Source: Candidatus Parcubacteria bacterium (lineage in GTDB: Bacteria; Patescibacteriota; Microgenomatia; UBA12405). Taken from it: a stretch of 64,000 bases of DNA. The notes beneath the pieces were generated by a model. It saw only the letters and a program-made list of their open reading frames with translations, did not search any database and was not told where the DNA came from. Where the stretch lies: positions 29,948-93,947 of the forward strand of contig JAEZTF010000010.1 of assembly GCA_023443725.1 (NCBI GenBank), in the 5' to 3' direction. Each line of letters opens with the position of its first letter. Position 1 is the first letter of the stretch. The position numbers were made by a program, and so were the translations under genes. Positions 20,585 through 37,680 of this stretch are shown in pieces.

Positions 20585-20586
20585 AG

Positions 20587-23276: not shown

Positions 23277-24366
23277 GATTTGAGTATAGCAGGGTTGTGT
23301 TATTTTTTTCGATATTATGAACCAACCCGATGGCGGCGGCTAAAGTAGTTAAAGATGATCCACCATAAGAAATAAATGGTAAAGGAACTCCGGTTAAAGG
23401 GATAATACCAGCAATTGCTGAAACATTAATTAATGTTTGATAAGTAATCCATAAAGCAGTGCCTGAAACTATAAGAGATTGAAAATTGTCAGGAATAATA
23501 TTGGCTAATTTAAACAAATAAGAAATTAAAGAAATATAAACAATTATTATAGAAAATAATCCGATGAATCCGGTTTCTTCACCAATAACCGCCAGAATGG
23601 AATCAGTAGATATTTTTGGAAGAAAACTATATTTTTGATCTGAATTAGCAAAACCTTTACCAAAAAAACCACCAGAAGCTAGAGTTAAAGTAATTTGATT
23701 ACTATGATATGAAGCCGTGTTTTGATTTTGTTCAGGATTTAGCATAGTTTTTAATCTAGCAGACCTATAAGGAGAAGTTAAAACCAATATCAAACTAATC
23801 GAAACTAAAAAAACACAAAATGTAAGAAGTGAGCTAATTTTGCCACCCCCAAGGTAATAAAGTGAAATAGAAATAGCCGATATTAAAATAGCTGTACTTA
23901 AATTTGGTTCTATAATTATTAGTACAAAAGGAATACCTAAATAAACAACCAAGTTTTTTAATTGACAATTTTCACTTTTTGAAAAAAATTTTGAAAGAAA
24001 TAACACTAAACTCAGTTTTAAAATTTCTGATGGTTGAAATTTAACGATGCCCAAATTCAACCAACGATGAGCTCCAAGAGTTTCATCACTAAATCCTGGA
24101 ATAATAACTAATATCAAAGCAATAATTGAAAAAATAAAAAATAAAGGAATATATTTTTGAATAGTTTTAAGTTTTATCTTAGAAAAAATAAAATAAACTA
24201 CAAAACTAATTATTAACCAAAGACTTTGTTTTCTAAGAAAGAAAAACTTATCTCCAATACTAGTAGTAGCTTCACTAAGTGAAGCAATGGAAATAAAAAT
24301 AATTCCAATAGCAATTAGAATAGAAATTAGGGAAATTAAAGGTGATTTAAATGCTGACGGTTTCAT
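23197..24366 (-). CDS. ftsW: SEDS-family protein FtsW
   Basis: FQPSEILKL, FLPKISTDSILA and GVPLPFISYGGSS. The ATG at 24366 (MKPSAFK...) is preferred over the track start at 24489. The 3' end overlaps murG by 80 nt. Confidence 0.8.
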   Translation of the reverse strand: MKPSAFKSPLISLISILIAIGIIFISIASLSEATTSIGDKFFFLRKQSLWLIISFVVYFIFSKIKLKTIQKYIPLFFIFSIIALILVIIPGFSDETLGAHRWLNLGIVKFQPSEILKLSLVLFLSKFFSKSENCQLKNLVVYLGIPFVLIIIEPNLSTAILISAISISLYYLGGGKISSLLTFCVFLVSISLILVLTSPYRSARLKTMLNPEQNQNTASYHSNQITLTLASGGFFGKGFANSDQKYSFLPKISTDSILAVIGEETGFIGLFSIIIVYISLISYLFKLANIIPDNFQSLIVSGTALWITYQTLINVSAIAGIIPLTGVPLPFISYGGSSLTTLAAAIGLVHNIEKNNTTLLYSNHESKDNKDNHHHRHSSHTSSRTDSST

Positions 24367-25480
24367 TGGCAGATTTGATAATTGAGGGTTTGATATTGAT
24401 AGGATTGTTTTGATTAGAAAATGGAATAAAATCTCGATAACGACTACAGGTATTATTTGATTTATCTTTTTTGGTAATTTCAGAACCAATGATTTTAGAA
24501 TTGTAAAATCTTTTATTTTCTTGAGGGATATCTATTTTTGTTTCTATTGGTAAGAATGATAAAAGATGAAAGAAAAAAAGTGAATTAATATTATTTCTAA
24601 TTTCGATTTGATGGTAAAGATCAAAAGAAGCTGTTAATCTTGGATTACATTCTAAAATGAAAACTTCTTCTTGATCAGTTACAAAAAAATCTAGACCAAA
24701 GAAACCATGATAATCAAAATTTGATAATACATCGGCAAGTTGTTCAGTTAAAATTTTAATTTTTTCAACAATTTTTGTTGGAGCAAACGATGGCCATTGT
24801 CGACCAACAGTAGTGAAAGGGTTTTGAGTAAATTGAGAAAGTCCAGTATATTGTAGTCCCGGTGGACTTTGAATTAGACCAGCGTTGGTAAGACAACAAT
24901 TATTAATTAATGAATAACCAGATAAAAATGGTGTAAATTTTACTGGAGTTTGAAGTGGAATTTTATCTTTTATATCTTCCCAATTTGATGAACTAAAGGT
25001 GCTTTTACCAGCCCAACCGAATCTGGTTTGAAGAACTAAATGTTTATTTAATACTTGTTGATATTTTTCAAAGTTTTCTTGATTGAATTTATCAATAATT
25101 GATGGAATTGTAGGTAAATAATGTTTTTTACAAAGTTTAGAAAAATTTATTTTATCTTCTAAAAAGCGATTTATTTTGGCTGGATTAGCGGCGTAAATCC
25201 AATTTTTTTGATGACAGATATGTTCTATCTTTCCCGAAGGTTTGAATGGAATTATAACTGCTTGGTGGCCAGTTTGTTTAATTTTGTTTTTAATAAAATT
25301 AATAGTTATGACTTCTGATAATAATTTCCCCGAATTTTTAATTTTATTGTTTAAATTCAAAATATCTGAATTTAATAAATAAAAATTACTTATTTCTTTA
25401 ATATTGATAGTTAAAAACTTATCAACACTAATAAAGAAAAAATCAAAATTACTATTTTGAAGTGTGTTAATTAGATTCAT
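24347..25480 (-). CDS. ATP-grasp superfamily ligase, not Ddl-like in sequence
   Basis: FGWAGKSTF (P-loop-like lysine region) and the C-terminal HGFFGLDFFVTDQEEVFILECNPRLTAS (ATP-grasp Mg/ATP-binding E-x-N motif). Confidence 0.65.
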   Translation of the reverse strand: MNLINTLQNSNFDFFFISVDKFLTINIKEISNFYLLNSDILNLNNKIKNSGKLLSEVITINFIKNKIKQTGHQAVIIPFKPSGKIEHICHQKNWIYAANPAKINRFLEDKINFSKLCKKHYLPTIPSIIDKFNQENFEKYQQVLNKHLVLQTRFGWAGKSTFSSSNWEDIKDKIPLQTPVKFTPFLSGYSLINNCCLTNAGLIQSPPGLQYTGLSQFTQNPFTTVGRQWPSFAPTKIVEKIKILTEQLADVLSNFDYHGFFGLDFFVTDQEEVFILECNPRLTASFDLYHQIEIRNNINSLFFFHLLSFLPIETKIDIPQENKRFYNSKIIGSEITKKDKSNNTCSRYRDFIPFSNQNNPINIKPSIIKSANETVSI

Positions 25481-26298
25481 CTTTTGGCACCGGTTAAAAG
25501 AATAACTGGAAAGTTTCCAACATCGATTCCATTTTTAATCGCTTTTTGATAACCGGCTAAAGCTAATGATCCTTCTAAAGAAGTAAAAATATTTTTAGAT
25601 TCGAGTAGTTGATTGGCTAATAAAATAGCTTCATTTTGAACAGTAAAAGCCGAACCATTACAATTCTTAATATTTGAAATAATTTTGTCTTTTAGGGGTA
25701 TAAATTTTACAGATAAAGCATCAGTAATTAGTCTGTTTTCAGGTATAAAGTTGTTATCAAAGCGTTTGGAAATAGGACAGTTACTGGCCGATTGAACAGC
25801 AAAAATCTTAGTTGAAGGTGGAAGTTTTTGGGCAATTCCGAGAAGGGTAGTACCACTACCAACAGGAATAAAAATACTGCTAATTTGTGGTAAATCTTGA
25901 ATAACTTCTAAGGCAATTTGTTGATATCCGATTAAAGCTGAAGGATCGGTTGATTGACGAAGTAGATAAACTTGTTTACTTTTTGCATATTTAATAGCAT
26001 CGCTAATAGGTTGGTCACTTAAAATAATTTCAGCAGAGTATTGCTTTAAAAGATCTAATTTCTTTTGATTTACTTTTGAAGATAAAAATATAGTTAATTC
26101 AATCTGATTGATTTGGCAAAAATGAGCCGCTGAAATTGCTGCATTACCAGTACTAGAGATAACAGCTTTAGTGAAACCAAGATGTTTTAAGTTTTCTATT
26201 TGAAACGGTATGGCTCTATCTTTAGCTGAACCGGTTGGGTTTTGGTCTTCCCTTTTTAAATAAAAATTGTCTATTTTAACTAAAGGAGTATTTGTCAT
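25477..26298 (-). CDS. Fold-type II PLP-dependent enzyme (threonine synthase / cysteine synthase / serine racemase superfamily), short form
   Basis: LKREDQNPTGSAKDRA (PLP-lysine motif), SSTGNAA, PVGSGTT. Confidence 0.75.
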   Translation of the reverse strand: MTNTPLVKIDNFYLKREDQNPTGSAKDRAIPFQIENLKHLGFTKAVISSTGNAAISAAHFCQINQIELTIFLSSKVNQKKLDLLKQYSAEIILSDQPISDAIKYAKSKQVYLLRQSTDPSALIGYQQIALEVIQDLPQISSIFIPVGSGTTLLGIAQKLPPSTKIFAVQSASNCPISKRFDNNFIPENRLITDALSVKFIPLKDKIISNIKNCNGSAFTVQNEAILLANQLLESKNIFTSLEGSLALAGYQKAIKNGIDVGNFPVILLTGAKR

Positions 26299-26341
26299 AT
26301 AATTGGCTAATTATACTAATTATATATTTTTTATCTTTAAT

Positions 26342-26506
26342 ATGACAGAAACAAAGAAAGTTAAATGTCCTGATTGTGGAGCTGAAATTTTATTATCTGG
26401 AACTGAAGAAGTCGGTGATATTTTGGAATGTGGCGAGTGTGGTACTGAAGTAGAAATTACTTCTATTGATCCTCTTTCTTTTAGAGAATTAGTCGAAGAG
26501 AAATAA
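26342..26506 (+). CDS. LysW-like zinc-ribbon small protein (54 aa) with an acidic tail
   Basis: MTETKKVKCPDCGAEILLSGTEEVGDILECGECGTEVEITSIDPLSFRELVEEK. The CPxCGAEI...GE/DIxxCxxCGxExE pattern and length match my recollection of Thermus LysW, but the C-terminus is VEEK, not EDWGE. It is the only plus-strand gene inside the dcw block. Confidence 0.5.
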   Translation: MTETKKVKCPDCGAEILLSGTEEVGDILECGECGTEVEITSIDPLSFRELVEEK

Positions 26507-27061
26507 TCTGTAAATACCTTGATTCTCAAAATTCAGATCAGTTAAATCGGCTTGTCCATAATGAACTCCCCTATTATCTCTTGAACTATCGACATATAAA
26601 ATAATATTGTCTTTTTTCTCGATGATAAACAAAACATGATGACCATTCTTTTGACGAACTAGGTCGCCAGTTTGAATATCAGTAATATTTGTAATTTTTT
26701 TTGATAAAGGAGTGGAAGTTAACATGTCAGCAGAAGTTTTTCGAGGATTAAGATCTACTTTTTTATTGATCAAAGAACCATAGAATATTAGCAACTGACA
26801 AACTAATCCGGAGCAATCGATACCGATTTTATTTTTCTTTTGAAAATTGTAAATTTCTCTTTCTGAAAGATTTAATAATTTTAAATTTTCTTGGTTAGCC
26901 AATTCAACAGTTTTAAGAGCGATATCTTTAGCGTTTCCCTTACCTCCCATAAATCCCTCTTTGATTATTTTGCCGTCTTTTAAAGTATTCTTCCAATATG
27001 GAATACCGATGTATTTACTGATTTCTAATTTTAATTGATTGATTAATTCAGGCCCAACCAT
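26489..27061 (-). CDS. NlpC/P60 (C40) family cysteine peptidase, no obvious signal peptide
   Basis: GIDCSGLVCQLL (catalytic Cys) and GHHVLFII (His). The ATG at 27061 is preferred over the track start at 27097. Confidence 0.7.
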   Translation of the reverse strand: MVGPELINQLKLEISKYIGIPYWKNTLKDGKIIKEGFMGGKGNAKDIALKTVELANQENLKLLNLSEREIYNFQKKNKIGIDCSGLVCQLLIFYGSLINKKVDLNPRKTSADMLTSTPLSKKITNITDIQTGDLVRQKNGHHVLFIIEKKDNIILYVDSSRDNRGVHYGQADLTDLNFENQGIYRLFLFD

Positions 27062-28077
27062 AATCCAAAAATAGCTAAAATAATACCAGCTAACCAAGCA
27101 CGAGTAACAATTTTAGGTTCTTCCCAACCAATTTTTTGCAAAGTAAGATGAATAGGAGCAGCTGGAAAAACTTTTTTACCAAAATATTTTTTACTAAAAA
27201 TCTGAATAGCACTACTCATACCTTCAATGATGAATGGAGAACCAATAATTAATAATGGAACTATTTTTCCTAAAAGAATAGCAATTACGGCAAATGTAGC
27301 GCCAAATGATAAAGCTCCGACGTCACCCAACCAAATTCTGGCTGGATAAACATTAAAATATAAAAAGGCGATTAATGATCCTAACCATAGTGACAAAAAT
27401 AAAGAAGTTGGAGTATCTAATGAGGTATTTGATAAAAACCAAAAAGCAAACAAAGCTATCATTAATAAACCACAAGACAGACCATCTAAACCATCAGTAA
27501 TATTAAAAAAGTTGGTAAAAGCAGTGATGATGATGGTGGATATGGGGATAAAAAATAAACCTAAGTGAATTGGTCCAAAAAAAGGTATGTAGAAAAAATC
27601 TATTTTTAATTTTAGATAAATAAGAAAAGAAATAATAACTGATAAAAGTAATTGAAGAATAAGTTTATGAATTAATCTAAGTCCAAAAAAACCAGTTTTT
27701 TTGAAACCAAAAAACTTATAAATATCATCATAAAGTCCAAGAATACCAAAACTAATAAAAGTAAAAAAGATTATTTCTAACTCATAATTTATTTGAAAAT
27801 TAGAAGAAATAAATATTTTGGAAAATTTTAATATAGGAAATAGAATTAAAAACATAACACAAACAGCAATGATGATTAAGAGTCCTCCACCTACAGGTGT
27901 GCCACTTTTTGAGTTATGAAATTTATCAAAAATAGGTGTTTTGTTATTTTGAAAATCGGTTGTTTGTTGTTTTTGACGTTGAAATTTGAGTTTGTAAAGA
28001 AGATTGATAAATGGAACAACTAAAGTACTAGAAATAAAGAAGGAAAAAAGTAATAGACCTAAATAAAGATGAATCAT
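27043..28077 (-). CDS. mraY: Phospho-N-acetylmuramoyl-pentapeptide transferase
   Basis: LYDDIYKF, NITDGLDGLS and PAAPIHLTLQ motifs. 10-TM topology. Confidence 0.9.
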   Translation of the reverse strand: MIHLYLGLLLFSFFISSTLVVPFINLLYKLKFQRQKQQTTDFQNNKTPIFDKFHNSKSGTPVGGGLLIIIAVCVMFLILFPILKFSKIFISSNFQINYELEIIFFTFISFGILGLYDDIYKFFGFKKTGFFGLRLIHKLILQLLLSVIISFLIYLKLKIDFFYIPFFGPIHLGLFFIPISTIIITAFTNFFNITDGLDGLSCGLLMIALFAFWFLSNTSLDTPTSLFLSLWLGSLIAFLYFNVYPARIWLGDVGALSFGATFAVIAILLGKIVPLLIIGSPFIIEGMSSAIQIFSKKYFGKKVFPAAPIHLTLQKIGWEEPKIVTRAWLAGIILAIFGLWLGLN

Positions 28078-28079
28078 AA

Positions 28080-29408
28080 TTAAATTTTAATATATTCAAT
28101 ATTAGCACCTAAGGAAGAAAGTCGTTCAGCTAATTTTTCGTAGCCTCGTTCTATAAATTCGACACCATCTATAGTAGATATTCCATCAGCAACTAAAGCA
28201 GCTATAGTAGTTGAGGCTCCGGCTCGAAGATCATCAATAACAAAATTAGTTGGTTGTAATTTGGTTGGTCCATATATTTTTACTCCGTGAAAAAAGTTAG
28301 GGTTGTCATTTTCTGGATTAAATTGATAGTAAGTTTCTGGATTTTCAACTATAGGATTAAATAATTGGACTTTTGCTCCCATTTTTTGTAAGTTAGCAAT
28401 ATGTTGAAAACGACTTGGATAGACTTTTTCGATTACCGAACTACAACCTACTGATTGAGTCAAAAGAATTGAAAATAAAGCTTGCCAGTCAGTCATAAAA
28501 GCTGGTTCTGGTCCAGTTTCGATATTGATAGCTTTTAATGGTTTTTCCCAAGAAATATATATTTCTTCCTCCCCTGTTTGGACTTTAGCTCCCATATTTT
28601 CGATGGTATCTAAAAATGTTTTAACCGTTTTTGGATCAGCCCTAAGAATATTGACACTACCTTTGGTGGCTAGAGCAGCGCAAGCAAAAGTAACAATTTC
28701 ATTTCGATCACAAATTACTTGATGTTGAGTACCGGTTAGAGATGAAACTCCTTGGATAACAATTTTTCCAGGGTCAGATGGTTCTCTTTGAATTTTTCCA
28801 CCCATTTTATTTAAAAGAATTATTAGATCGTCTATTTCTGGTTCTTGGCCACAATTTTCTAAAATAGTTTCTCCTGGAACTAATACAGCTGTCATAATTA
28901 AAGTTTCAGTGACGGTATGAGAAGGTTTATTAAAAACATAATGAACTGGTTTAATTTTTTCAGTAGTAAAAACTAAGTTAGTTTCTGTTTCCTTGGTTTG
29001 AATATTCATTTTTGAAAAACAGTCAATTAGACGATCTAGAGGCCTATTGCCAAGACGATCTCCTCCTGGAGTAGGAACTACAGCTTGCCCAGTTCTGGCT
29101 AATAGTGGAGCAGAAAACATAAATGAACTACGAGATTTAATTCCAGTTCCTTGTGGGACAGTAAAATTTTTTATTTTTGAGGTAGTTACTTTGATGCAAT
29201 GTTCACCACAAGAACTTATTTCTGATCCTAAAGATTTTGCAATGCTTTCGGTTATTTTTATATCAGAAATATTGGGAATATTGGTTAATTGGGTAGTTTG
29301 ATCAGAAAGCATAGAAGCAATAATTTGTTTATAGCTAGCATTCTTTGCTCCTCTAATAGAAACTTCACCTTGAAGTTTTTTCCCGCCAGAGATGATATAT
29401 CGTGACAT
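28080..29408 (-). CDS. murA: UDP-N-acetylglucosamine 1-carboxyvinyltransferase, Asp at the Cys115-equivalent position
   Basis: ISGGKKLQGEVSIRGAKNA... and PGGDRLGNRPLDRLI (E. coli PGGCTIGARPVDLHI). Confidence 0.9.
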   Translation of the reverse strand: MSRYIISGGKKLQGEVSIRGAKNASYKQIIASMLSDQTTQLTNIPNISDIKITESIAKSLGSEISSCGEHCIKVTTSKIKNFTVPQGTGIKSRSSFMFSAPLLARTGQAVVPTPGGDRLGNRPLDRLIDCFSKMNIQTKETETNLVFTTEKIKPVHYVFNKPSHTVTETLIMTAVLVPGETILENCGQEPEIDDLIILLNKMGGKIQREPSDPGKIVIQGVSSLTGTQHQVICDRNEIVTFACAALATKGSVNILRADPKTVKTFLDTIENMGAKVQTGEEEIYISWEKPLKAINIETGPEPAFMTDWQALFSILLTQSVGCSSVIEKVYPSRFQHIANLQKMGAKVQLFNPIVENPETYYQFNPENDNPNFFHGVKIYGPTKLQPTNFVIDDLRAGASTTIAALVADGISTIDGVEFIERGYEKLAERLSSLGANIEYIKI

Positions 29409-29413
29409 AAATA

Positions 29414-30787
29414 TTAGTGAATATTTTTAATAATTGATTTAATAATTTTATTACCAGACAAACCACCAGAACTCATATATATAAGGATATCATTTGATGA
29501 TAAATGATGTATATAGTAGGCTTTTATTTCTTTTTCGATAGGAATATAAATCAACTTTGATCCAATTTCTTGTTTAAAGTCTTTAGCAGTAGCACGAGAT
29601 TTTTTGTCTACATTAGGGTTAAATCTAATTGGTCCTAAAACTATTTCATTAGCTTTTGTAAAAGCTTTTTTTAAGCCAATTAAATTACTTTTATATTGGG
29701 TAAATGAGGCATGAGGTTGAAAGAATACTTTTATTAATTTATCTGGAAAATGAGTTGTTAAAGCTTCAATGGTTGATTTAATACGATTTGGTGATTGAGC
29801 GAAATCTTCAAAAAACAAAATATTTTTTTGTTTATCAATTAATTCTAATCGCCTTTTAACTCCTCTATAAGAAAAAACAGCTTTTTGAATAAAACGAAAA
29901 CTAATACCTAATTGATCAGACATACTAACTGCAGCCAGAATATTCTCAAAGTTAAATTGACCGATAAGAGTAGTTTGAATAGATAACGGACCTTTGGGGG
30001 TATGGATTAATAAGTTGGTTATATCAGATTTAATATTTATTTTTTCTATAAAATAATCAGATTCTGGAGAATTATAGGAAACAATTTTAGCTTTTGAATA
30101 AAGACTAAGTTTTTTGGTTTGACAGCCAAGAGAATTGATTAAAAGGGTGCCATTTTCTGGTAGTCGATTAATTAATTTCTTAAAAGCTTGAAAATTTTTT
30201 ATTTTACTAGAATAAGAATCTTTATGTTCCCAATCGGCACTAGTTAAAATTAAATGTTTAATTGGATAATATAAAAACTTAGCTTTTCGATCTAATCCAT
30301 TAATTGATTCATCGGCTTCAACGATAGACCAATTAGATGGAGAGAAGTTAATAGAGTTCATCTTATTTTTGGCGTATCCACCAAACATGTAATTTGGATC
30401 TTTTTTAGCTTGAATGAAAATCCAAGACAATAGACTAGTGATAGTAGTTTTTCCAAAACTACCAGCAATTAAGACAGACTCATCTTTAATTAAGTTTTGA
30501 GCTAAATAATTAGTAGCAGAAATATAGGGAATTTTTAGTTTTTTTATTTGATTAAATTCTTTTTTGGTTTTTTCAAAAGAAAGATATGATGATCCAATAA
30601 TAGCCAAATCAATATTAGTATTGATTTCTATCGAATTGATCGATATATCCGCTTTTTTTAACATAGTACTAATTGGGGGATAAATTTTTTCTTGATCTGA
30701 TCCGGTTATATAAACTCCTCTTTTTTTGAGATTAACTGCCAGAGGAGCAGTCATGGTTCCAGCTATTCCGACTATGTGAATATGCAT
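29414..30787 (-). CDS. Mur ligase of the Mpl/MurC family, closer to Mpl (UDP-MurNAc:tripeptide ligase) by motif
   Basis: MHIHIVGIAGTMTAPLA...ITGSDQEKIYPPISTML (Mpl-type YPPMST motif), AGSFGKTT, EADES, RRLEL, EDFAQSP. Confidence 0.75.
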   Translation of the reverse strand: MHIHIVGIAGTMTAPLAVNLKKRGVYITGSDQEKIYPPISTMLKKADISINSIEINTNIDLAIIGSSYLSFEKTKKEFNQIKKLKIPYISATNYLAQNLIKDESVLIAGSFGKTTITSLLSWIFIQAKKDPNYMFGGYAKNKMNSINFSPSNWSIVEADESINGLDRKAKFLYYPIKHLILTSADWEHKDSYSSKIKNFQAFKKLINRLPENGTLLINSLGCQTKKLSLYSKAKIVSYNSPESDYFIEKINIKSDITNLLIHTPKGPLSIQTTLIGQFNFENILAAVSMSDQLGISFRFIQKAVFSYRGVKRRLELIDKQKNILFFEDFAQSPNRIKSTIEALTTHFPDKLIKVFFQPHASFTQYKSNLIGLKKAFTKANEIVLGPIRFNPNVDKKSRATAKDFKQEIGSKLIYIPIEKEIKAYYIHHLSSNDILIYMSSGGLSGNKIIKSIIKNIH

Positions 30788-30802
30788 ATTAGTAAATAGC
30801 TA
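30788..30802 (-). repeat. 15-nt motif TAGCTATTTACTAAT directly abutting the start codon of the mpl-like gene
   Basis: An identical 15-mer lies 1 nt upstream of the galE ATG (60536..60550). A 14/15 copy is at 61538..61552. Confidence 0.8.
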
Positions 30803-30822
30803 ATAAATAGTTAATAGTTGAA

Positions 30823-31419
30823 TTATTTTTCATATGGAAGCCATTGATTGTCTTTAAAATATTCAAATCCAGGCATATTACGTTTATAGAATCCAGTTTC
30901 AATAGAAAAACGACCTAAATAACAAAATTGAAGATTTTGTTGTTGACTGTCAACAATGGTTTGTAACACCAATCTAATAGGTAAATTACTATGATTATAT
31001 TTAGGATTATAAAAAACATAAGCAATATGACTAATAGAGTTAGAAAAATAACATATTGAATAAGCAATTATCTGATGATTTTCATTATACCAACTATAAA
31101 TAGTATTAAAAATATGATTAGTAAATGTTTTTTTGACTGAACTTATGGGAAAATCCCAACCTAATTGTTTTATCCAAGAAAAAATTTCTTTTTGAATATT
31201 AAGATCAAATTTAAAATCGTTCAAATTAGTTTTAATAAAAGAAAAATTATCAGTTTTTCTTAAAATCCTTCTATTTTCTGAACTGAGATTAAACTTGGAT
31301 AAATTTGATCGACAACTACTATCCTGATACCAAAGATCTTTTTGGTTTCTTTGAGGAAGGAATCCTTGTTGATAATTTAATTCTATAGATTGATTGTTGG
31401 TTAAATTAAATTGGGTCAT
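30823..31419 (-). CDS. ATE/Bpt-like (arginyl/leucyl-tRNA-protein transferase family, ATE_C-type) protein
   Basis: FNLSSENRRILRK, IAYVFYNPKY...L and FCYLGRFSIETGFYKRNMPGFEYFKDNQW parallel the ATE_C pattern (SavYfFYdP...YLGYyi...M.YK..f.P.E.l....W) as I recall it. Confidence 0.55.
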   Translation of the reverse strand: MTQFNLTNNQSIELNYQQGFLPQRNQKDLWYQDSSCRSNLSKFNLSSENRRILRKTDNFSFIKTNLNDFKFDLNIQKEIFSWIKQLGWDFPISSVKKTFTNHIFNTIYSWYNENHQIIAYSICYFSNSISHIAYVFYNPKYNHSNLPIRLVLQTIVDSQQQNLQFCYLGRFSIETGFYKRNMPGFEYFKDNQWLPYEK

Positions 31420-32735
31420 ATTTTTTTTAATTTTAAAGCAGTTCTAAAAGCTTCTGTTTCTGACCAAGGATATTCAGTATTTCCATGAAGAATAGTATCT
31501 TCATGACCTTTACCACAAGCAATCACAACATCATCGGGTTGGGCTAACTTAATAGCTATATTGAAAGCGTCCTGTCGATTGGGAATATTAAAATAAGTAA
31601 ATTTTTGGTCAATCTTTTTTAGAATATCATTTATTTGTTTTTGATTTTCAATTTTTTGAATGTCAACAAAATTGGATTTATTAGGATCAATACCATTGAT
31701 TATTTGTTGATTAATTTGACTAATATCTTCGTTTCTAGTGTCGTCTGAAGTAATAATGGCAATATCAGCTAGACTAGAGACTACTTGACCCATTTGAGGT
31801 CGTTTTGTTTGATCTCGTCCGCCTGTGGCTCCAAAAATAATAATAATTTTACCTTTAGTAATTTTCTTTAATGAAGAAAGAGTTTTTTCTAAAGCGTTTG
31901 GAGTATGGGCAAAATCAACAATTGTTTTAAATTTAAAATTATTTTTAACTTCTTCTCGACGACCTTTGGTTTCGGGAAAATTTTTAACTGTTTCGAGTAA
32001 GAATTGTCGATTAATTTTTAAGTTATCAATAATTCCTAAGGCAACCAATATATTATTAATCTGATAAAAATAATTACTATCAGTGGTTATGGTTAGTTTA
32101 TTTACTTTAAAACTTAATTTTTTATTAGTTAATTTAATATCTTTAGCTTGATAATCTGACTTTTGGTCAACACTGTAAGTTGAGTAAGGAATTTGAATCA
32201 TAGGTTTAATTATTTGATATGACGAATCGTCTTTATTGATAATGCCATAATCTGATTGAGAGAAAATTTTTGCTTTAGACTGAATATACTCTTCCATGTT
32301 TGAATAATAATCTAAATGCTCATGTGAAGTGTTGGTAATAGCTGCAGTTATAAAGTGGCAACCTAAAAATCGATATTGATCAAGGCCATGAGCAGTAACT
32401 TCACAAACTACATGAGTAACTCCTGCAGCTAACATTTGACTAAGTATTTGCTGAAATAATTTTGGATCTGGACTAGTCATATGTAAACCAGTACTTATTT
32501 CTTGATTATTTCCAAACTTAGCGCCTATTGTAGTAATTACACCGGCATTAATACCAGCTTTTTTTAAAATTTCATAAACTAAAATACAACTAGTTGTTTT
32601 ACCATCGGTTCCAGTAATACCAATAAGTTTTAGTTTTTTTGCTGGAAAATTATGTTGAAGACTGACAAAAAAGTTTTTTGGGTAATGCCAGAAAAGATTT
32701 TTTATTTTTTGAAAATTGATCGATTTTAATGACAT
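31416..32735 (-). CDS. murE: UDP-N-acetylmuramoyl-L-alanyl-D-glutamate--diamino acid ligase
   Basis: GITGTDGKTT, EVTAHGLDQYR, TNTSHEHLDYY and ITSDDTRNED (a variant of the DNPR specificity motif). Confidence 0.85.
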   Translation of the reverse strand: MSLKSINFQKIKNLFWHYPKNFFVSLQHNFPAKKLKLIGITGTDGKTTSCILVYEILKKAGINAGVITTIGAKFGNNQEISTGLHMTSPDPKLFQQILSQMLAAGVTHVVCEVTAHGLDQYRFLGCHFITAAITNTSHEHLDYYSNMEEYIQSKAKIFSQSDYGIINKDDSSYQIIKPMIQIPYSTYSVDQKSDYQAKDIKLTNKKLSFKVNKLTITTDSNYFYQINNILVALGIIDNLKINRQFLLETVKNFPETKGRREEVKNNFKFKTIVDFAHTPNALEKTLSSLKKITKGKIIIIFGATGGRDQTKRPQMGQVVSSLADIAIITSDDTRNEDISQINQQIINGIDPNKSNFVDIQKIENQKQINDILKKIDQKFTYFNIPNRQDAFNIAIKLAQPDDVVIACGKGHEDTILHGNTEYPWSETEAFRTALKLKKI

Positions 32736-32749
32736 ATTTAGCGAGTTAA

Positions 32750-34369
32750 TTATAACAAATGGTTGATTTTAGAGGCTAATTCAAACCAAATTGGAGCAGC
32801 AGTACTAGAACCCCAAGGTGAACTTTTAGGATTATTAATAGTTACAATCATGGTAAATTTTGGATTATCACATGGAGAAAAACCAATATAGGAAGCAATG
32901 GTTGAAGAATCAGTATAACCACCTTTTACAGCAATTTGAGCGGTACCACTTTTAGCACAAACTTCAAGATTTTTTGGTTTCATAACAGAAACTACTCCAT
33001 TTTCGACAGAATATTTAAGGATTGATTTAATTTCTTCAATCGAATTTTGATTGAAAATTTGTTGTGGATTATTGTTTTTGTCTATTAAAATGTGAGGTTT
33101 AACTAATAACCCATTGTTAGCAATAGTATTAAATGCTTGCAACATACCTACTTGAGTAACGACTATTCCCTGTCCAAATGAAGCAGTAGCTAGATCTATA
33201 TCTGGCCAATTAGTTTTAGTACTAGGACGTGATTCTCCTTGCAAATCAATACCAGTTTTTTGGTTGAGACCAAGTTTTTGAAAATAATTTAAAAACTTTT
33301 CTAAACCAATTTTTGAGATAATATGGCTCATACCGATATTGTCGGAATTTTTTATGATCTCTTTAAGAGATGAGTCTGGATGGGTTTCGTTATCATGATT
33401 GGTTATAGTATATTCCCCTATTTTTAGAGGTTTATCGCATTCATGGCAAACATAATCAGGAGAAATTGATTTACTATCCAAACCAATAGTGACAACTAAT
33501 GGTTTAAATATTGATCCTGGTTCAAAAAGATCAGAAATTGAATTTATTTTTGTAGCACTGGGAGTGGCTGAAGTGGTGGCAGTAAAAGTGGTCATAGCTA
33601 AAATACCTCCGGTTTTACTATCCATAACTGTAATGGATCCAGAATCGGCATCATATTTTTCAACACCTTCTTTTAATTCTTTTTCTACTTCAAATTGAAC
33701 ACTGCGATTTAAAGTGGTGTGTAAATCTTGTCCGTCAATAGCAATAGAATTCCAAGACTTTTTAGTAAGAATAGCTTTTCCAGTAGCGTCTTGAGGAGAC
33801 CAAGTAAAACCCGTTTTACCTTTTAATTGTTTTTGGTAATAGCCTTCAAGCCCTCCGTAACCTATATCGTAGCCTTGATCGTTTTTTGCTACCAACCCTA
33901 AAATTGGTTGAGCCAATGATTGTTCTGGATAGTATCTTTTTTCATTTTTTTCAAAACTAAGACCGGGTATTTTAAGTTGGTTTTTTTCTTCTTCGTTAAA
34001 AAGACTAGTGAAAGTTAACCATTTTTGATTTTGATTACTTTTAAACAATTCAATTAACTTTATATTTTCTTGGTTGAATTGTGGATGAATTTGATTGATT
34101 TTTGTAAAAACTTCTTCAAGACTTTGATCTAAATTTGGTTTGTATATCGACAATTTATAATTAGTAACATTAAGAACCAAAGGAAAATCATCGGACGAAT
34201 ATATTTTTCCCCGACTGGGGATAGTTTTCTCAAGTTTGTACATTTGAATTAAAGCCTTTTCTCTTAATTCTGGTCCTTCTATCACTTGAATATAAAAAAA
34301 TCGACAGATTATAAAAATAAAACAGATTATTAAAGTTGTAGAAACAGTTTTAATTCTAGAGCTATTCAT
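32750..34369 (-). CDS. ftsI: Class B penicillin-binding protein (FtsI/PBP2 transpeptidase)
   Basis: N-terminal anchor, dimerisation domain, GSIFKP (SxxK), SDN (SxN), KSGTA (KTG). Confidence 0.9.
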   Translation of the reverse strand: MNSSRIKTVSTTLIICFIFIICRFFYIQVIEGPELREKALIQMYKLEKTIPSRGKIYSSDDFPLVLNVTNYKLSIYKPNLDQSLEEVFTKINQIHPQFNQENIKLIELFKSNQNQKWLTFTSLFNEEEKNQLKIPGLSFEKNEKRYYPEQSLAQPILGLVAKNDQGYDIGYGGLEGYYQKQLKGKTGFTWSPQDATGKAILTKKSWNSIAIDGQDLHTTLNRSVQFEVEKELKEGVEKYDADSGSITVMDSKTGGILAMTTFTATTSATPSATKINSISDLFEPGSIFKPLVVTIGLDSKSISPDYVCHECDKPLKIGEYTITNHDNETHPDSSLKEIIKNSDNIGMSHIISKIGLEKFLNYFQKLGLNQKTGIDLQGESRPSTKTNWPDIDLATASFGQGIVVTQVGMLQAFNTIANNGLLVKPHILIDKNNNPQQIFNQNSIEEIKSILKYSVENGVVSVMKPKNLEVCAKSGTAQIAVKGGYTDSSTIASYIGFSPCDNPKFTMIVTINNPKSSPWGSSTAAPIWFELASKINHLL

Positions 34370-34617
34370 TTTAGATTTACTTTTTGATCAATGTATATGA
34401 GAGGCTTTTTTTGTTGTTCTAGATAAAGATAATTAATAGAAGTCATATCGGTGAATTTTTTTTCTAGGCCTTGAGTTTCTATTTTAAGTTTTTGATGTTC
34501 AATTTGATTTTGATAAAGCTGACTGTTTTGGTTGATAATTTCACTTGAATAATAAAAAGAAAAAACGATTTGAATAGAAATAATTACAACTAAAATGTAA
34601 GTAAAATATTTTGGCAT
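34366..34617 (-). CDS. FtsL-like bitopic division protein
   Basis: 83 aa with a TM helix and a coiled-coil-like segment. Lies between rsmH and ftsI. Confidence 0.5.
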   Translation of the reverse strand: MPKYFTYILVVIISIQIVFSFYYSSEIINQNSQLYQNQIEHQKLKIETQGLEKKFTDMTSINYLYLEQQKKPLIYIDQKVNLK

Positions 34618-35501
34618 TAAACTATTTTATACGATCTAAGGATAGCTGAGCGAGATAGTGGATTTTTTTTGATTTCTTTAAATGAAGGGTGGACTGCTTT
34701 GCTGACTTGGAAAATTTTATTTTCAGACAAATTATTTTGAATAAATTGTTTAATAATTCTATCTTCGCCTGAATGAAAACTAATAAAACAAGCCGTTCCG
34801 TTTGGTTTTATAATGTTTAAACTTTGAGAAAGGATTTGTTTGAGATTGCTAAATTCTTGATTAACAGCAATTTTTAAAGCTAAAAATATTTTAGTACTAG
34901 GATCGGTTTTAGTTCTGATTTTCTTTTCTAAATAAAAATTTCTGATAATATCAGCCAATCTTTTGGCATTGGTAATAGGTTTTTTTTGACGTTCAGAAAT
35001 TATTTTTGATACTAAGTCATGACTATACAATTCTTGACTATTTTTGGAAAAAATTTCATACAACTCTTCGGCAGAACCGATGTTAATGATATCTTTAGCA
35101 GTAGGATCATTGGAATTTTGGTTAATTCGCATATCTAAAGATTCCTCATCGTTAAAAGAAAAACCTCTATTAGTAGAGATTTGTTGGTTTCTACTTAAAC
35201 CTAAATCAACTAAAAGGCCATCAACTTTTTGATTAATTTTTTCGTTAACAATTTTTTGTAGTTGATTAAAATTGGATAATACAGGGGTAAATTTTCCTGA
35301 TAAACCGGCATTTTTGATTCTTTCAGTAGATATTTCTAAATTAGTTTGATCTTGATCTATACCATAAACAATAGCATCTTGTTGAAGAAGGGCTAAAGTA
35401 TGTCCCCCATTTCCTAAAGTAGCATCAATAATAATAGAGTTTGGTTTAATGTTTAGGCTAGATATTACTTCTTCAAGAAGAACTGGTTGGTGATAATCCA
35501 T
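34617..35501 (-). CDS. rsmH: 16S rRNA (cytosine1402-N4)-methyltransferase RsmH/MraW
   Basis: HQPVLLEEV, DATLGNGGHT, SFHSGEDRIIK. Confidence 0.9.
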   Translation of the reverse strand: MDYHQPVLLEEVISSLNIKPNSIIIDATLGNGGHTLALLQQDAIVYGIDQDQTNLEISTERIKNAGLSGKFTPVLSNFNQLQKIVNEKINQKVDGLLVDLGLSRNQQISTNRGFSFNDEESLDMRINQNSNDPTAKDIINIGSAEELYEIFSKNSQELYSHDLVSKIISERQKKPITNAKRLADIIRNFYLEKKIRTKTDPSTKIFLALKIAVNQEFSNLKQILSQSLNIIKPNGTACFISFHSGEDRIIKQFIQNNLSENKIFQVSKAVHPSFKEIKKNPLSRSAILRSYKIV

Positions 35502-36211
35502 TAGTTGATTAAGTAATCTCCAGTTATGACAGTGGTATCTTCTTTGGTAACTGTGGAAGGGGTAATAGAAGATACTTTACCACTACCATTACCACTAGAG
35601 AAAACTGAATAAACTGGTTTAAAGTTTTTGATTAAAACGAAGTAATCACTTTTTGAAGAAACACTAGCTTTAATAGAAAAATTTTCAGTCTCCAAACTTA
35701 AACCTTTAGATTTAATATCTGCAGAAGTTAACAAAACAAATGGTGCTTCGTATGAAGCTGATTGACCATCAGCAGTAATGAAACTAAGAGAAAGAGTTCC
35801 ACCAGTAATACCCTCATCGTATTTATATTTACAGCCGCTAGTACAACTTTCGGTACCCAAGAGTAATTCTCTGTCTATAGATGTACCTTCAATTTTAGCT
35901 GTACCACCAACTCCTTTTTCAATTTCAATATTTTCGTCTTTGGCGGTGTAGATTAAATCATATTCGATTTCTTTGATACTCTCAGGAATATTAGAAATCT
36001 TTAAGTTCAATCGATGGCCATCAGCTTGAGGAGTCAAACTAATATATGGTTTTTGATCATCAGTTAAAACCAATTCAATTTCGGTTTTTGTATTTTGAGT
36101 TGTATTATTGACTGAAGTTTTTTTGTTTTTGCCAGTTAATACCATAACAATGGTGATAATTATCAATACTAAAGCACCAATAATGAAATAGATTGCTGTT
36201 TTATTTTTCAT
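35501..36211 (-). CDS. Hypothetical membrane-anchored extracytoplasmic protein (occupies the position upstream of rsmH; no mraZ)
   Basis: N-terminal TM helix. No motif recognised. Confidence 0.55.
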   Translation of the reverse strand: MKNKTAIYFIIGALVLIIITIVMVLTGKNKKTSVNNTTQNTKTEIELVLTDDQKPYISLTPQADGHRLNLKISNIPESIKEIEYDLIYTAKDENIEIEKGVGGTAKIEGTSIDRELLLGTESCTSGCKYKYDEGITGGTLSLSFITADGQSASYEAPFVLLTSADIKSKGLSLETENFSIKASVSSKSDYFVLIKNFKPVYSVFSSGNGSGKVSSITPSTVTKEDTTVITGDYLIN

Positions 36212-36216
36212 AGTTA

Positions 36217-37536
36217 TTATTTATTTAACTGCTTTTCCATCCAACTGTCAATTTTATCGATAGAAACTCTAATTTGTTTCATAGTGTCACGATCACGAAT
36301 TGAAACAGTGTTATCTTCTAATGTTTGATAATCAACTACAGTACACCATGGTGTTCCTATTTCATCTTGACGACGATATTTTTTCCCAATATTACTACTA
36401 TCATCCCAATCAATAGAATATTTTTGACTTAATTGTTTATAGAGCTTTTCGGCTTTGTCAATTAATTCTGGTTTATTGGCAGCTAGAGGGAAAATAGCCA
36501 TCTTATAGGCAGAAACTTTAGGGTTCACTTTTAAAACAGTTCTAACATCTCCTGACTCAGTTTTCTCTTCTTGGTAAGCATCGAGAAGCATAAAAAAGAA
36601 ACTACGATCGACTCCTCCAGAGGTTTCAGTAATCCATGGGATATATCTCTCATGTGTAGTCGGATCGATATAAGATAGGTCTTGTCCACTAAACTTAGAA
36701 TGTTGAGTTAAATCATAATCTGATCGCCAATGTATTCCTTCCATTTCGGCCCATCCCCAGGGAGCATTATATTCAATATCAAAAGCTTTTTTAGCATAGA
36801 AAGCCAATTCATCCTTGCCATGTTCTCTAAATCTTAAATTATCTTGATTGTTAAATAATGATTTATACCAATTGATACGAGTTTCTTTCCAATATTCAAA
36901 CCATTTATCCATTTCATCTGGATGAACAAAATATTGAATATCCCATTGTTCGAATTCTCGAGTACGATAAAGGAAATTTTTAGGAGTAATTTCATTTCTG
37001 AAAGCTTTTCCGATTTGAGCGATACCAAAAGGTACTTTAACTCGAGTAGAGTCGACAATATTTTTAAAATCTAAATAAATAGTTTGGCAAGCTTCTCCTC
37101 GTAAATAGGCATGAAGTTTTTCACCTTCTATAACTCCAATTTCAGTTTCAAATAATATATTGTATTTTCGTCCCTCGGTAAATTGTCCACCACATTCTGG
37201 ACATTTAGACGGATCATCAAGTAAATCAGGTCGAAAACGTTTGTGACATGATTTACATTCAACCATGATATCGGCAAAATTTTTGACATGTCCTGAAGCT
37301 TCCCAGACTCGAGGGTGAGTAATAATTGATCCGTCGATCATAACAACATCTTGTCGAGAGGTAACATTATCGTGAATCCAAAGATCTTTCCAATTTTTTT
37401 TCATGAGAGAACCGATTGGTCCGTAATCATAAAAACCTTGAACACCGCCATAAATTTCAGAATTTTGAAAAATTATTCCTCTGCGTTTACAGAGACTGAC
37501 GATTTTGCTGACAAGATCATTTTGATTGTCTGACAT
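36217..37536 (-). CDS. glyQS: Glycyl-tRNA synthetase, alpha2 (GlyQS) type
   Basis: RRGIIFQNSEIYGGVQGFYDYGPIG, class II motifs and a CxxC...CPECG insertion. The ATG at 37536 with an AGGAG SD is preferred over the track's TTG at 37554. Confidence 0.9.
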   Translation of the reverse strand: MSDNQNDLVSKIVSLCKRRGIIFQNSEIYGGVQGFYDYGPIGSLMKKNWKDLWIHDNVTSRQDVVMIDGSIITHPRVWEASGHVKNFADIMVECKSCHKRFRPDLLDDPSKCPECGGQFTEGRKYNILFETEIGVIEGEKLHAYLRGEACQTIYLDFKNIVDSTRVKVPFGIAQIGKAFRNEITPKNFLYRTREFEQWDIQYFVHPDEMDKWFEYWKETRINWYKSLFNNQDNLRFREHGKDELAFYAKKAFDIEYNAPWGWAEMEGIHWRSDYDLTQHSKFSGQDLSYIDPTTHERYIPWITETSGGVDRSFFFMLLDAYQEEKTESGDVRTVLKVNPKVSAYKMAIFPLAANKPELIDKAEKLYKQLSQKYSIDWDDSSNIGKKYRRQDEIGTPWCTVVDYQTLEDNTVSIRDRDTMKQIRVSIDKIDSWMEKQLNK

Positions 37537-37680
37537 AGTTCTCCTAAAAAACAATTAATATTTTTTAGGGATCCCGATAAATCAGGACGGTTCCACCCTA
37601 TTTGATAAATTATTTTTTCCAGTTAATTTATCCTCTTTTATTTTTCGGCTCGAGATTTGCCAAATCTGTCATTGCCTTGA
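37537..37680 (-). promoter_or_regulatory. T-box riboswitch-like leader (Gly, GGC specifier) with truncated Stem I and an SD-sequestering helix
   Basis: Minus strand: K-turn hairpin GGC-AAU-GA-C-AGAU[UUGGCAA]AUCU-C-GA-GCC (37676..37647); Stem III (37632..37604); AGGG-UGGAACC-GUCCUGA-UUUA-UCGGGAU-CCCU antiterminator-type fold (37599..37567); CCUAAAAAA-N9-UUUUUUAGG hairpin overlapping the SD (37569..37543). Confidence 0.7.

Follow-up and report, generated by a model that had tools for sequence, protein, structure and literature searches.

Aminoacyl-tRNA-dependent transferases are known in two settings that bear on the locus described here: the Fem/MurM enzymes add branches to peptidoglycan, and ATE1, Bpt and Aat modify the N-termini of proteins for degradation. 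ATE1 and Bpt have as their acceptor the amine of Asp or Glu at a protein N-terminus, and yeast ATE1 carries a Cys4 site formed by C23, C26, C95 and C96. Mutation of KlAte1 identified two residues required for activity, as the K304A and Y303F mutants were inactive, and ATE1 K304 has been equated with FemX K305 (PMC9351520). S. epibionticum, a CPR bacterium available in culture, has its murE flanked by two genes of the FemA/FemB family (PMC10633639 supplement). We found no description of an ATE-like enzyme paired with a Mur ligase in the literature searched.

The window analysed, a stretch of 64,000 nt from a Candidatus Parcubacteria bacterium (contig JAEZTF010000010.1), contains a dcw cluster in which such a pair is present, with the following features in and around it:

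31416..32735, minus strand: MurE, 439 aa, without the N-terminal UDP-binding domain (Pfam Mur_ligase_M and Mur_ligase_C only)
31416..31419, minus strand: ATGA overlap of the murE stop and the ATEC start, indicating translational coupling (sequence and ORF coordinates)
30823..31419, minus strand: ATEC, an ATE/Bpt-like aminoacyl-tRNA transferase homologue of 198 aa, minimal in form and lacking the Cys4 metal site
29414..30787, minus strand: Mpl-like UDP-MurNAc ligase of the MurC/Mpl family, 457 aa, with three Mur ligase domains (Pfam), the conserved partner of ATEC
28080..29408, minus strand: murA (Pfam EPSP_synthase, 247 bits)
27043..28077, minus strand: mraY (Pfam Glycos_transf_4; tblastn with EcMraY), the upstream neighbour of ATEC in Magasanikbacteria-type loci
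26489..27097, minus strand: divergent NlpC/P60-like cysteine peptidase (u202), possible module member
26345..26506, plus strand: LysW-like zinc-ribbon protein of 54 aa, EEK being conserved at its C-terminus, possible module member
25477..26298, minus strand: PLP-dependent fold-type II enzyme, threonine synthase/dehydratase/serine racemase-like (Pfam PALP, 155 bits)
24347..25480, minus strand: ATP-grasp ligase (Pfam ATP-grasp_3), possible module member

The preliminary description of this stretch had placed an ATE/Bpt-like ORF between murE and an mpl-like ligase, with a 4 nt overlap coupling it to murE, and both observations are real. ATEC matched the Pfam family ATE_C (PF04377) over residues 95–169 with 30.3 bits, against a gathering cut-off of 25, and 54/60 of its relatives matched the same family. 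Similarity to ATE_C and to Fem-type aminoacyl-tRNA transferases, as anticipated in that description, was significant by both HMM and structure. ATEC and its partner ligase are both small, soluble and confidently modelled; ATEC has the ATE1-type fold, with a GNAT lobe and an N-terminal strand/helix lobe, and its top structural matches were all aminoacyl-tRNA transferases. Searches against PDB sequences gave nothing significant with phmmer (best E 0.15, a GNAT acetyltransferase), and a 60-sequence ATEC profile reached ATE1 with an E-value of 0.1 only, so that it is Pfam, hhalign and structure that link ATEC to ATE1. We also weighed an acetyl-CoA-dependent GNAT and rejected it, since every top structural match is an aminoacyl-tRNA transferase and the aminoacyl-transferase Lys is invariant; read by eye, the β4-α3 loop is NLPIRL and lacks the Q/R-x-x-G-x-G/A motif.

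The best HMM names for ATEC are arginyltransferase/Bpt, and JGI annotates the family likewise, which would fit an ordinary Bpt enzyme of the N-degron pathway. Such an enzyme would attach leucine to N-terminal Asp or Glu residues of proteins destined for ClpS/ClpAP, and its position in the dcw cluster would be fortuitous. Against this, the NCBIfam arginyltransferase (Bpt) models scored 18–31 bits (best 31.4), with equivalog cut-offs of 170–358, and their alignments began only at model position 64–80. There was no Pfam match to ATE_N in ATEC at E ≤ 10, and no conserved Cys motif in sets of 30 or 60 relatives; the Cys4 zinc/[Fe-S] site, described as conserved in the ATE1 papers, is absent. A profile search of 1.84 billion proteins retrieved 229 clusters only, thus leaving the bulk of true Bpt/ATE1 proteins outside the reach of the ATEC profile. 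A hydrophobic donor pocket, as in Bpt, speaks for the N-degron role, and the genomic context argues against it, since ATEC is linked to one ligase across classes and is once fused to it. Taken together, we regard the N-degron enzyme as highly improbable, in agreement with the preliminary description, which had set it aside.

Residues 114–183 of ATEC aligned to ScATE1 238–308 with hhalign and hmmsearch, placing Y178-K179 on Y303-K304; both residues are invariant in 60 sequences, and K179 hence occupies the position equivalent to the catalytic FemX K305. The SENRR motif and a basic helix are nearly invariant as well, as is His131 (invariant or nearly so), in sequences that are only 20–30% identical. 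Such retention is typical of preserved catalysis and counts against a non-catalytic ATEC that would bind charged or uncharged tRNA, or the ligase, and tune the first peptide-adding step to amino acid supply. The stoichiometric coupling by overlaps and fusion is subunit-like, and a minimal protein that has lost the ATE_N metal site could suit such a regulatory role, which we nevertheless consider very unlikely. In the model, the basic helix spans residues 47–55 and presents R50 (56/60), R51 (60/60), R/K54 and K55; it was likened to the tRNA-binding α3 of ATE1 from motif order, by eye and without residue-level superposition.

The donor pocket differs from that of ATE1, as the columns S255/S273/E277/Y289 read I/L/T/C in ATEC and Y/I, M/L, A/T/V and I/V/C across the family. 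The acidic, Arg-binding Asp/Glu277 of ATE1 (Gln in Bpt) corresponds to Thr154, in a column with A in 27 sequences, T in 9, V in 7, S in 4 and E in 4. With these pocket columns changed in ATEC and its family, the predicted donor is not Arg. For the acceptor, the region around ATE1 Arg80, which binds the acidic acceptor, was left unaligned by hhalign and HMMER. Matching GFRRSG to GFLPQR by eye puts Pro22 at the Arg80 position, with an Arg (Arg24) two residues on in a column that holds R in 44/60 and S/T in 16/60. The window also carries tRNA genes (Gly-CCC, Thr and Val), and a glycyl-tRNA synthetase gene lies near the cluster; these are weak hints on the donor and were left unused. Given that the Tyr-Lys pair is kept along with a conserved basic helix, that the Cys4 site and the acidic Arg-binding residue are lost, and that Bpt scores are low, we read ATEC as a probable minimal, non-Arg, ATE/Bpt-like aminoacyl-tRNA transferase, and not as a Bpt orthologue.

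The partner ligase resembles Mpl in several respects. Its best match among PDB sequences was P. arcticus Mpl (3hn7), blastp gave 152 bits with EcMpl and 106 with EcMurC, and the EcMpl score exceeded the EcMurC score for 81/81 paired ligases, which JGI also names Mpl. The window ligase contains the Mpl-type motifs GSD..IYPPISTML, RRLEL, DFAQSP and MSSGG and a D-R-K-A-K-F loop insertion, and the paired ligases as a group carry N-terminal GSD..YPP.ST.L, the insertion D-K/R-x-x-K-F (6–7 residues relative to EcMurC), RRLEL, DDFAH.P and C-terminal MS.GG. The Mpl peptide-site motifs HH and EPRSNT are partly kept, as QS and QPHASF in the window and as HS and EPN/PRTS in other lineages. In H. influenzae MurC, L-Ala is bound by Tyr346, His348, His376, Arg377 and Arg380 (PMC3060825), which are F/Q/H/A/Q in the window ligase, with His376 alone kept. 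Based on the 81/81 comparison, the motifs and the altered L-Ala site, the partner ligase is by its sequence Mpl-like, not a standard MurC. The NCBIfam models point the other way for the window ligase, with 231 bits for murC and 173 for mpl, both under their cut-offs; the orthologue in L088 scored 247.3 for mpl and 247.0 for murC. No match to murC, murD, murF or ddl was found within the dcw cluster of the window, and the ligase may be the sole MurC/Mpl-type ligase of the genome. The window MurE was recognised by TIGR01085 (342 bits, alignment from model position 78–97), scored as the DAP-adding type (NF001126, 342 bits, versus 178 for the Lys type), and retains the Arg in its DNPR-like motif, read by eye as DDTR.

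Gene contexts of about 10 kb around each match were compared for 95 related ATEC loci from Shapirobacteria, Dojkabacteria and Magasanikbacteria. The labels 'Saccharibacteria' and 'Gammaproteobacteria' of TPA MAG contigs are unreliable, the 'Saccharibacteria' lineage being Magasanikbacteria-like. In 88/95 loci the next gene downstream of ATEC is that of the ligase, after a median gap of 6.5 nt. This adjacency spans at least three CPR classes and persists at identities as low as 31% and where the flanks are rearranged, which disposes of the concern that the neighbours had met by chance. The gene upstream of ATEC is murE in 73 loci, mraY in 11 and another gene in 11. ATEC no longer adjoins murE in the Magasanikbacteria-type loci or in the Dojkabacteria locus L075, whereas it essentially always adjoins the ligase. 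On three contigs of one lineage, ATEC and the ligase are fused in frame into a protein of 645 aa with a Pro/Ser-rich linker. Fusions of non-consecutive Mur enzymes are known, for example MurC-Ddl, so the fusion alone is no proof of consecutive steps. The linkage of ATEC with its Mpl-like ligase is obligate. The preliminary description, which had suggested a tRNA-dependent transferase acting on the stem peptide or a division protein, is supported with the refinement that the constant partner is the Mpl-like ligase, and neither murE nor a division protein.

Our best reading is that ATEC performs a tRNA-dependent step of cytoplasmic stem-peptide synthesis that is coupled to the Mpl-like ligase. 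More specifically, we tentatively favour, well short of even confidence, that it makes or finishes the peptide loaded by the ligase. For the tRNA dependence, the identities of donor and acceptor and the order of the steps, we infer the following scheme. ATEC would belong, as a pared-down enzyme still capable of catalysis, to the ATE/Bpt branch of the aminoacyl-tRNA-dependent GNAT-fold transferases, and would be the obligate partner of an Mpl-type UDP-MurNAc ligase in cytoplasmic peptidoglycan precursor synthesis. The basic helix (R50, R51, R54, K55) would hold the acceptor end of an aminoacyl-tRNA charged with a neutral, non-arginine amino acid, and Lys179 and Tyr178 would stabilise the tetrahedral intermediate. 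The aminoacyl group would pass to the free α-amino group of an acidic acceptor of the glutamate type, which could be D-Glu itself or an iso-glutamyl peptide. The product, such as L-Ala-D-Glu alone or extended by a third residue, may be handed directly to the adjacent or fused ligase, which would join it to UDP-MurNAc before MurE and later enzymes continue. P. arcticus Mpl accepts L-Ala-D-Glu weakly. The higher murC score of the window ligase and the Pro22 read by eye at the Arg80 position, in a segment left unaligned by the programs, count against this scheme.

The branching of the stem peptide by a FemX-like activity, raised in the preliminary description, is now one of two comparably likely mechanisms; it is possible, though on balance unlikely, and we place it behind the step feeding the ligase. 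ATEC would then transfer an L-amino acid or glycine from aminoacyl-tRNA to the free amine on the side chain of DAP or Lys, residue 3 of the UDP-MurNAc-tri/pentapeptide, thus making a branch or cross-bridge. Its linkage to the ligase would in that case come from a complex of several Mur enzymes, and not from a succession of steps. W. viridescens FemX provides a precedent, acting on the cytoplasmic nucleotide precursor and having the fold and catalytic Lys in common with ATEC. The translational coupling to murE in the window and the murE gene upstream in most loci fit this role, as do a glycyl-tRNA synthetase gene that several lineages carry immediately upstream of the dcw cluster and a MurD-like gene alongside the module in some lineages, which suits an add-on enzyme. 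The FemA/FemB-family genes that flank murE in S. epibionticum suggest an analogous placement, with no PF04377 (ATE_C), PF00291 or LysW in the annotation of that genome (PMC10633639 supplement). SEML1_0746 of S. epibionticum, an essential small gene beside MurC, was considered as a possible ATEC and rejected, as it encodes a membrane protein. Branching leaves the Mpl-like partner with its altered amino acid site unexplained, and does not account for the loss of murE adjacency alongside a ligase adjacency that persists. The DAP-type score of the window MurE and the Arg retained in its motif are also adverse, and we know of no tRNA-dependent branches on DAP-type peptidoglycan. Furthermore, ATEC gave no Pfam match at E ≤ 10 to FemAB (PF02388) or the Fem-related PF13480 (21/60 relatives matched the latter weakly), and it has a single GNAT domain in 198 aa, not the two tandem GNAT-like domains (~330–420 aa) of Fem proteins.

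Four further genes accompany the pair in Shapirobacteria and Magasanikbacteria, with differing gene orders. The peptidase u202 aligned with E. coli MepS in hhalign (probability 86.8%, E 4e-6) with Cys and His matched, 17/19 members of its family matched PF00877 with GIDCSG and His154 invariant, and homologues are present in the Magasanikbacteria module. The LysW-like protein scored 44 bits with NCBIfam lysW (cut-off 53) and Pfam Zn_ribbon_LysW was weak among related loci; its gene lies beside the PALP gene in about 55 related loci, and the C-terminus is always ..EEK or ..DEGK, while the N-terminus varies. The PALP enzyme had only generic NCBIfam and PDB matches, and it follows the ligase in divergent lineages, giving the order ATEC-ligase-PALP in L070, L071, L073, L076-79, L086 and L088. 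The ATP-grasp ligase had no relative among PDB sequences, and its homologues adjoin mraY/ATEC in related loci. Together with the ligase, these could form a carrier sub-system in which ATEC aminoacylates an amine of the LysW-like protein, such as that of its C-terminal Lys, or an amino acid attached there. The co-travelling genes, the invariant C-terminus and the protein-modifying nature of ATE1 and Bpt favour this, and the unconserved N-terminus and the lack of any fusion or overlap of ATEC with these genes do not; in L075, moreover, the pair is present with no ATP-grasp, PALP, NlpC/P60 or LysW-like gene within 6 kb. We give the carrier role a slim chance.

An extension of the tRNA-dependent step feeding the ligase, which we consider improbable, is that the start of the stem peptide is assembled off the nucleotide in these CPR lineages, by a 'peptide-first' route that would replace MurC and MurD in Shapirobacteria. 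ATEC would use Ala-tRNA, or another neutral aminoacyl-tRNA, to form L-aa-D-Glu, possibly on the LysW-like carrier; loading of the carrier would fall to the ATP-grasp enzyme, provision or epimerisation of the amino acid to the PLP enzyme, and release of the product to the NlpC/P60-like peptidase, after which the Mpl-like ligase would add the finished peptide to UDP-MurNAc. A divergent MurD gene adjoins the module in some Magasanikbacteria-type loci (L073, L077, L079), so that a bypass of MurC and MurD cannot be the universal role of ATEC. Replacement of MurD or MurF as a universal role was likewise rejected, given this murD and the presence of murF and ddl close by in L064, L065, L067 and L068.

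The permanent coupling of ATEC and ligase in several groups of the ultrasmall CPR bacteria suggests an undescribed tRNA-dependent step in the building of the cell-wall peptide. If so, an ATE/Bpt-type enzyme tied to a Mur ligase would give the fold a third role, as yet undescribed, in cell-wall synthesis, within the Patescibacteria, a radiation with an essentially unknown wall chemistry. Should ATEC feed the ligase, the stem peptide could be started by tRNA-dependent chemistry or salvage, besides the MurC-MurD series, and should the peptide be assembled off the nucleotide, peptidoglycan synthesis would be tRNA-dependent at one of its core steps. This bears on how reduced episymbionts build their walls, on which Mur drug targets are truly universal, and on the origin of the N-degron transferases.

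Among known systems, the paired ligases are closest to Mpl in their motifs, and differ in scoring 173–247 bits against the mpl cut-off of 388.7, with an equal or higher murC HMM score, and in lying inside the dcw cluster beside murE, murA and mraY. ATEC resembles FemX/FemABX/MurM in the equivalent catalytic Lys, the peptidoglycan precursor context and the weak PF13480 matches of 21/60 relatives, and differs in having a short N-terminal lobe beside its one GNAT lobe and in its coupling to an Mpl/MurC-type ligase, for which no Fem example is known. That an aminoacyl group can be moved from tRNA onto the amine or hydroxyl of a small molecule, and not onto a protein, has precedent in Sbb17/Sba18 and in the MprF aminoacyl-phosphatidylglycerol synthases; PacB, VlmA and DhpH are further small-molecule aminoacyl-tRNA-dependent peptide synthases. 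These enzymes belong to another subfamily (Fem/DUF2156-like) and to antibiotic or lipid pathways, with none known to be paired with a Mur ligase. With ATE1 and Bpt (ATE_N PF04376, ATE_C PF04377), ATEC shares the above-threshold ATE_C match, the Tyr-Lys pair, the conserved YLG...YK and (F/Y)xYxP motifs and, judged by motif order, a basic helix following an R-x-x-L-x-x-F segment, and with Bpt also the hydrophobic donor pocket. It is smaller (198 aa, where Bpt has about 240 and ATE1 about 500), lacks ATE_N and the Cys4 site, has Thr, Ala or Val in place of the acidic Arg-binding residue, and is found paired or fused with a Mur ligase in the context of peptidoglycan synthesis, not with the components of an N-degron pathway.

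The preliminary description had placed an ATE/Bpt-like aminoacyl-tRNA transferase homologue (ATEC, a name used here also for its relatives) between murE and an mpl-like ligase, possibly acting on the stem peptide. The ORF at 30823-31419 (minus strand) indeed encodes 198 aa from an ATG start, with every motif quoted for it present in the translation, and the proposed 4-nt overlap with murE is real, with ATGA being common to the ATEC start codon (31419-31417) and the murE TGA stop codon (31418-31416). The order on the minus strand is glycyl-tRNA synthetase, a 236-aa unknown, rsmH, ftsL, class B PBP, murE, ATEC, the MurC/Mpl-family ligase, murA, mraY, a 202-aa protein, a PLP enzyme, an ATP-grasp enzyme, ftsW, murG, ftsA and ftsZ, with a short gene for a LysW-like zinc ribbon on the strand opposite to these dcw-cluster genes:

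19415-37554, dcw cluster (rsmH, ftsL, ftsI, murE, murA, mraY, ftsW, murG, ftsA, ftsZ)
31416-32735, minus strand, MurE, 439 aa, without the N-terminal UDP-binding domain
29414-30787, minus strand, Mpl-like ligase
26489-27097, minus strand, NlpC/P60-like peptidase, 202 aa, GIDCSG and His154 invariant
26345-26506, plus strand, LysW-like zinc ribbon, 54 aa, between the NlpC/P60-like and PLP enzyme genes
24347-26298, minus strand, PLP fold-type II and ATP-grasp enzymes, between mraY and ftsW

The P-loop of MurE spans residues 39-48, and the protein aligns to the HMM from model position 78-97 onwards; published Pfam coordinates of S. epibionticum MurE and MurF suggest a similar truncation, which may therefore be a CPR-wide trait. 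A tblastn search with E. coli proteins gave no match for MurD, MurF, DdlB or a second MurC/Mpl in the whole 64-kb window, and murF and/or ddl are present between murA and mraY in related unclassified Patescibacteria loci (L064, L065, L067, L068). The glycyl-tRNA synthetase and 236-aa genes (36217-37554, minus strand) lie directly upstream of the dcw cluster, a placement kept in more distant ATEC-bearing lineages (L082, L068, L061), which is at best a weak hint of glycine as donor. There are two SEDS-family (FtsW/RodA) genes in the window (15052-16050 and 23197-24489, both minus strand); the second adjoins murG, and its TTG start was probably called too early, since as listed it overlaps the ATP-grasp ORF.

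ATEC matches Pfam ATE_C above the gathering score (30.3 versus 25 bits), while the NCBIfam arginyltransferase (Bpt) models match weakly (18-31 bits, cut-offs 170-358) and align only from model position 64-80, and thus the Cys-rich N-terminal part is missing. An ordinary N-degron Bpt is the least probable of the roles considered, and very improbable. Both a 60-sequence profile and hhalign aligned ATEC residues 114-183 with residues 238-308 of yeast ATE1 (reference sequence 100% identical to PDB 8e3s_A), placing Y178-K179 on ATE1 Tyr303-Lys304. The KlAte1 variants K304A and Y303F lack activity, and Lys304 corresponds to Lys305 of FemX (PMC9351520). Y178 and K179 are invariant in 60/60 relatives, the most distant of which share only 20-38% identity with ATEC; that ATEC is a regulatory subunit is improbable. 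A nearly invariant S-E-N-R-R motif lies within a predicted helix (residues 47-55), and the order of motifs, rather than superposition, suggests that this basic helix may resemble the tRNA-binding helix of ATE1, MprF and FemX. The ATE1 arginine-pocket residues S255, S273, E/D277 and Y289 correspond to I132, L150, T154 and C166 in ATEC (Y/I, M/L, A/T/V and I/V/C across the family), and as all four are replaced, the sequence argues against arginine as donor. The position of ATE1 Arg80 in the acceptor pocket, assigned by eye only in an unaligned segment, would be Pro22, with Arg24 two residues on.

A tblastn search with the window genes showed the ligase directly downstream of ATEC on the same strand in 88/95 loci with a relative, with a median gap of 6.5 nt (in 82 the two genes overlap or are at most 100 nt apart). 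The other seven loci comprise a contig end (L074), a fusion of ATEC to a PPDK_N/PEP-utilizer protein (L085), the order ATEC-redoxin-ftsA (L094), and two outlying family members in unrelated contexts, at two loci each (L095-L098). The upstream neighbour is variable (murE in 73 loci, mraY in 11, something else in 11), and in the Dojkabacteria locus L075 two-component system genes stand between murE and the pair. Furthermore, in one lineage the ATE-like domain and the ligase are parts of a 645-aa protein, connected by a Pro/Ser-rich linker; three contigs give the identical call, within the same dcw setting. With adjacency kept, the upstream gene variable and the two proteins fused in one lineage, ATEC and the ligase form the conserved functional unit. 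The L085 protein (P0185, 8001-10430, 809 aa) combines an ATEC-like domain with PPDK_N (ATP-grasp-type) and PEP-utilizers mobile domains, giving the family another fusion partner besides the ligase, and has a MurE-like ligase 4.4 kb upstream.

The mpl-like label of the ligase was upheld. Its NCBIfam scores (murC 231, mpl 173) are both under cut-off, and the Magasanikbacteria orthologue ties at 247 each; its closest PDB sequence match is P. arcticus Mpl (3hn7), and E. coli Mpl outscores E. coli MurC for 81/81 paired ligases (152 versus 106 bits for the window ligase), which JGI also annotates as Mpl. The paired ligases carry Mpl signatures (GSD..YPP.ST.L, RRLEL, DDFAH.P, MS.GG) and the 6-7-residue Mpl loop insertion with D-(K/R)-x-x-K-F. 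The L-alanine-binding residues of H. influenzae MurC, Tyr346, His348, His376, Arg377 and Arg380 (PMC3060825), correspond to F, Q, H, A and Q, so that only His376 is kept and the site is altered.

The transferase fold, intact catalytic residues, non-arginine pocket and obligate link with an Mpl-like UDP-MurNAc ligase would place ATEC in cytoplasmic stem-peptide synthesis. Aminoacyl-tRNA transferases require a free amine (or hydroxyl) acceptor, and we tentatively favour a role in which ATEC would extend a glutamate-type acceptor at its alpha-amine with a neutral L-amino acid, making or completing a peptide that the ligase would then load. We prefer this because the ligase linkage is almost never broken, the ligase resembles the only peptide-loading Mur enzyme, ATE/Bpt enzymes natively modify the amine of an N-terminal Asp or Glu, and murC and murD are missing from the local cluster. 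A FemX-like branch on stem-peptide residue 3, which has the stronger precedent and fits both the murE-ATEC coupling in the window and the Fem genes flanking murE in cultured Saccharibacteria, is only slightly less probable; it leaves the ligase linkage and the altered ligase site unexplained, and MurE looks DAP-type. These role assignments are drawn wholly from sequence, predicted structure and gene context. A universal MurC+MurD bypass is disfavoured; a divergent MurD-like gene adjoins the module in some Magasanikbacteria-type loci.

The ATEC-ligase pair is accompanied in Shapirobacteria and Magasanikbacteria by four more genes in differing order, encoding the ATP-grasp enzyme, the divergent NlpC/P60-like cysteine peptidase, the PLP fold-type II enzyme and the LysW-like zinc ribbon; divergent lineages have the order ATEC-ligase-(LysW)-PLP enzyme. 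The 202-aa peptidase has no Pfam match above threshold and no obvious signal peptide by eye, matches E. coli MepS with 86.8% probability (hhalign), and has homologues of 247-263 aa in the Magasanikbacteria module. The PLP and ATP-grasp genes fill the usual murD position between mraY and ftsW and accompany the pair in remote CPR lineages; the PLP enzyme has similarity to threonine synthase, dehydratase and serine racemase, with matches reaching no specific family. LysW-like relatives adjoin the PLP enzyme gene in about 55 related loci and always end in ..(L/I)(V/I)EEK (Shapirobacteria, Dojkabacteria) or ..IVDEGK (Magasanikbacteria-type). Genuine LysW has a C-terminal Glu, and the strictly conserved terminal Lys suggests a putative attachment site; that ATEC acts on this carrier is unlikely. 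Since Mpl and NlpC/P60 peptidases recycle peptides in model bacteria and LysW is an amino-group carrier, the module might, speculatively, either serve in salvage or make a stem-peptide building block with the help of a carrier.

When 1.84 billion representative proteins were searched with a profile, only 229 clusters reached E<=0.001, so the family is small and stands apart from most Bpt/ATE1 proteins; 528 relatives came from a scan of species-representative genomes. The best 79 loci belong to Shapirobacteria, Dojkabacteria and unclassified Patescibacteria, plus a Magasanikbacteria lineage identified through the ligase search. Going by how close homologues are named, the window itself comes from a relative of Candidatus Shapirobacteria (Patescibacteria/CPR). 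Many TPA MAG records among L001-L079 are titled 'uncultured Gammaproteobacteria bacterium' or 'Candidatus Saccharibacteria bacterium', with a gene content of Shapirobacteria and Magasanikbacteria, and such labels are unfit for taxonomic distribution. ATEC proteins are hypothetical at NCBI and carry a transferred arginyltransferase name at JGI.

Literature searches brought up no pairing of an ATE/Bpt-like protein with a Mur ligase and no tRNA-dependent peptidoglycan role of the ATE/Bpt family, and ATEC would combine known chemistry and fold with a new partner and context and probably a new substrate. Its predicted donor pocket is hydrophobic, as in Bpt, and it differs from ATE1 in the absence of the zinc/[Fe-S] site, as there is no conserved cysteine motif among the relatives compared (30 or 60 sequences). 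ATEC fails several defining ATE1/Bpt features, yet its sequence and predicted structure indicate that it would work like an ATE/Bpt/Fem enzyme.
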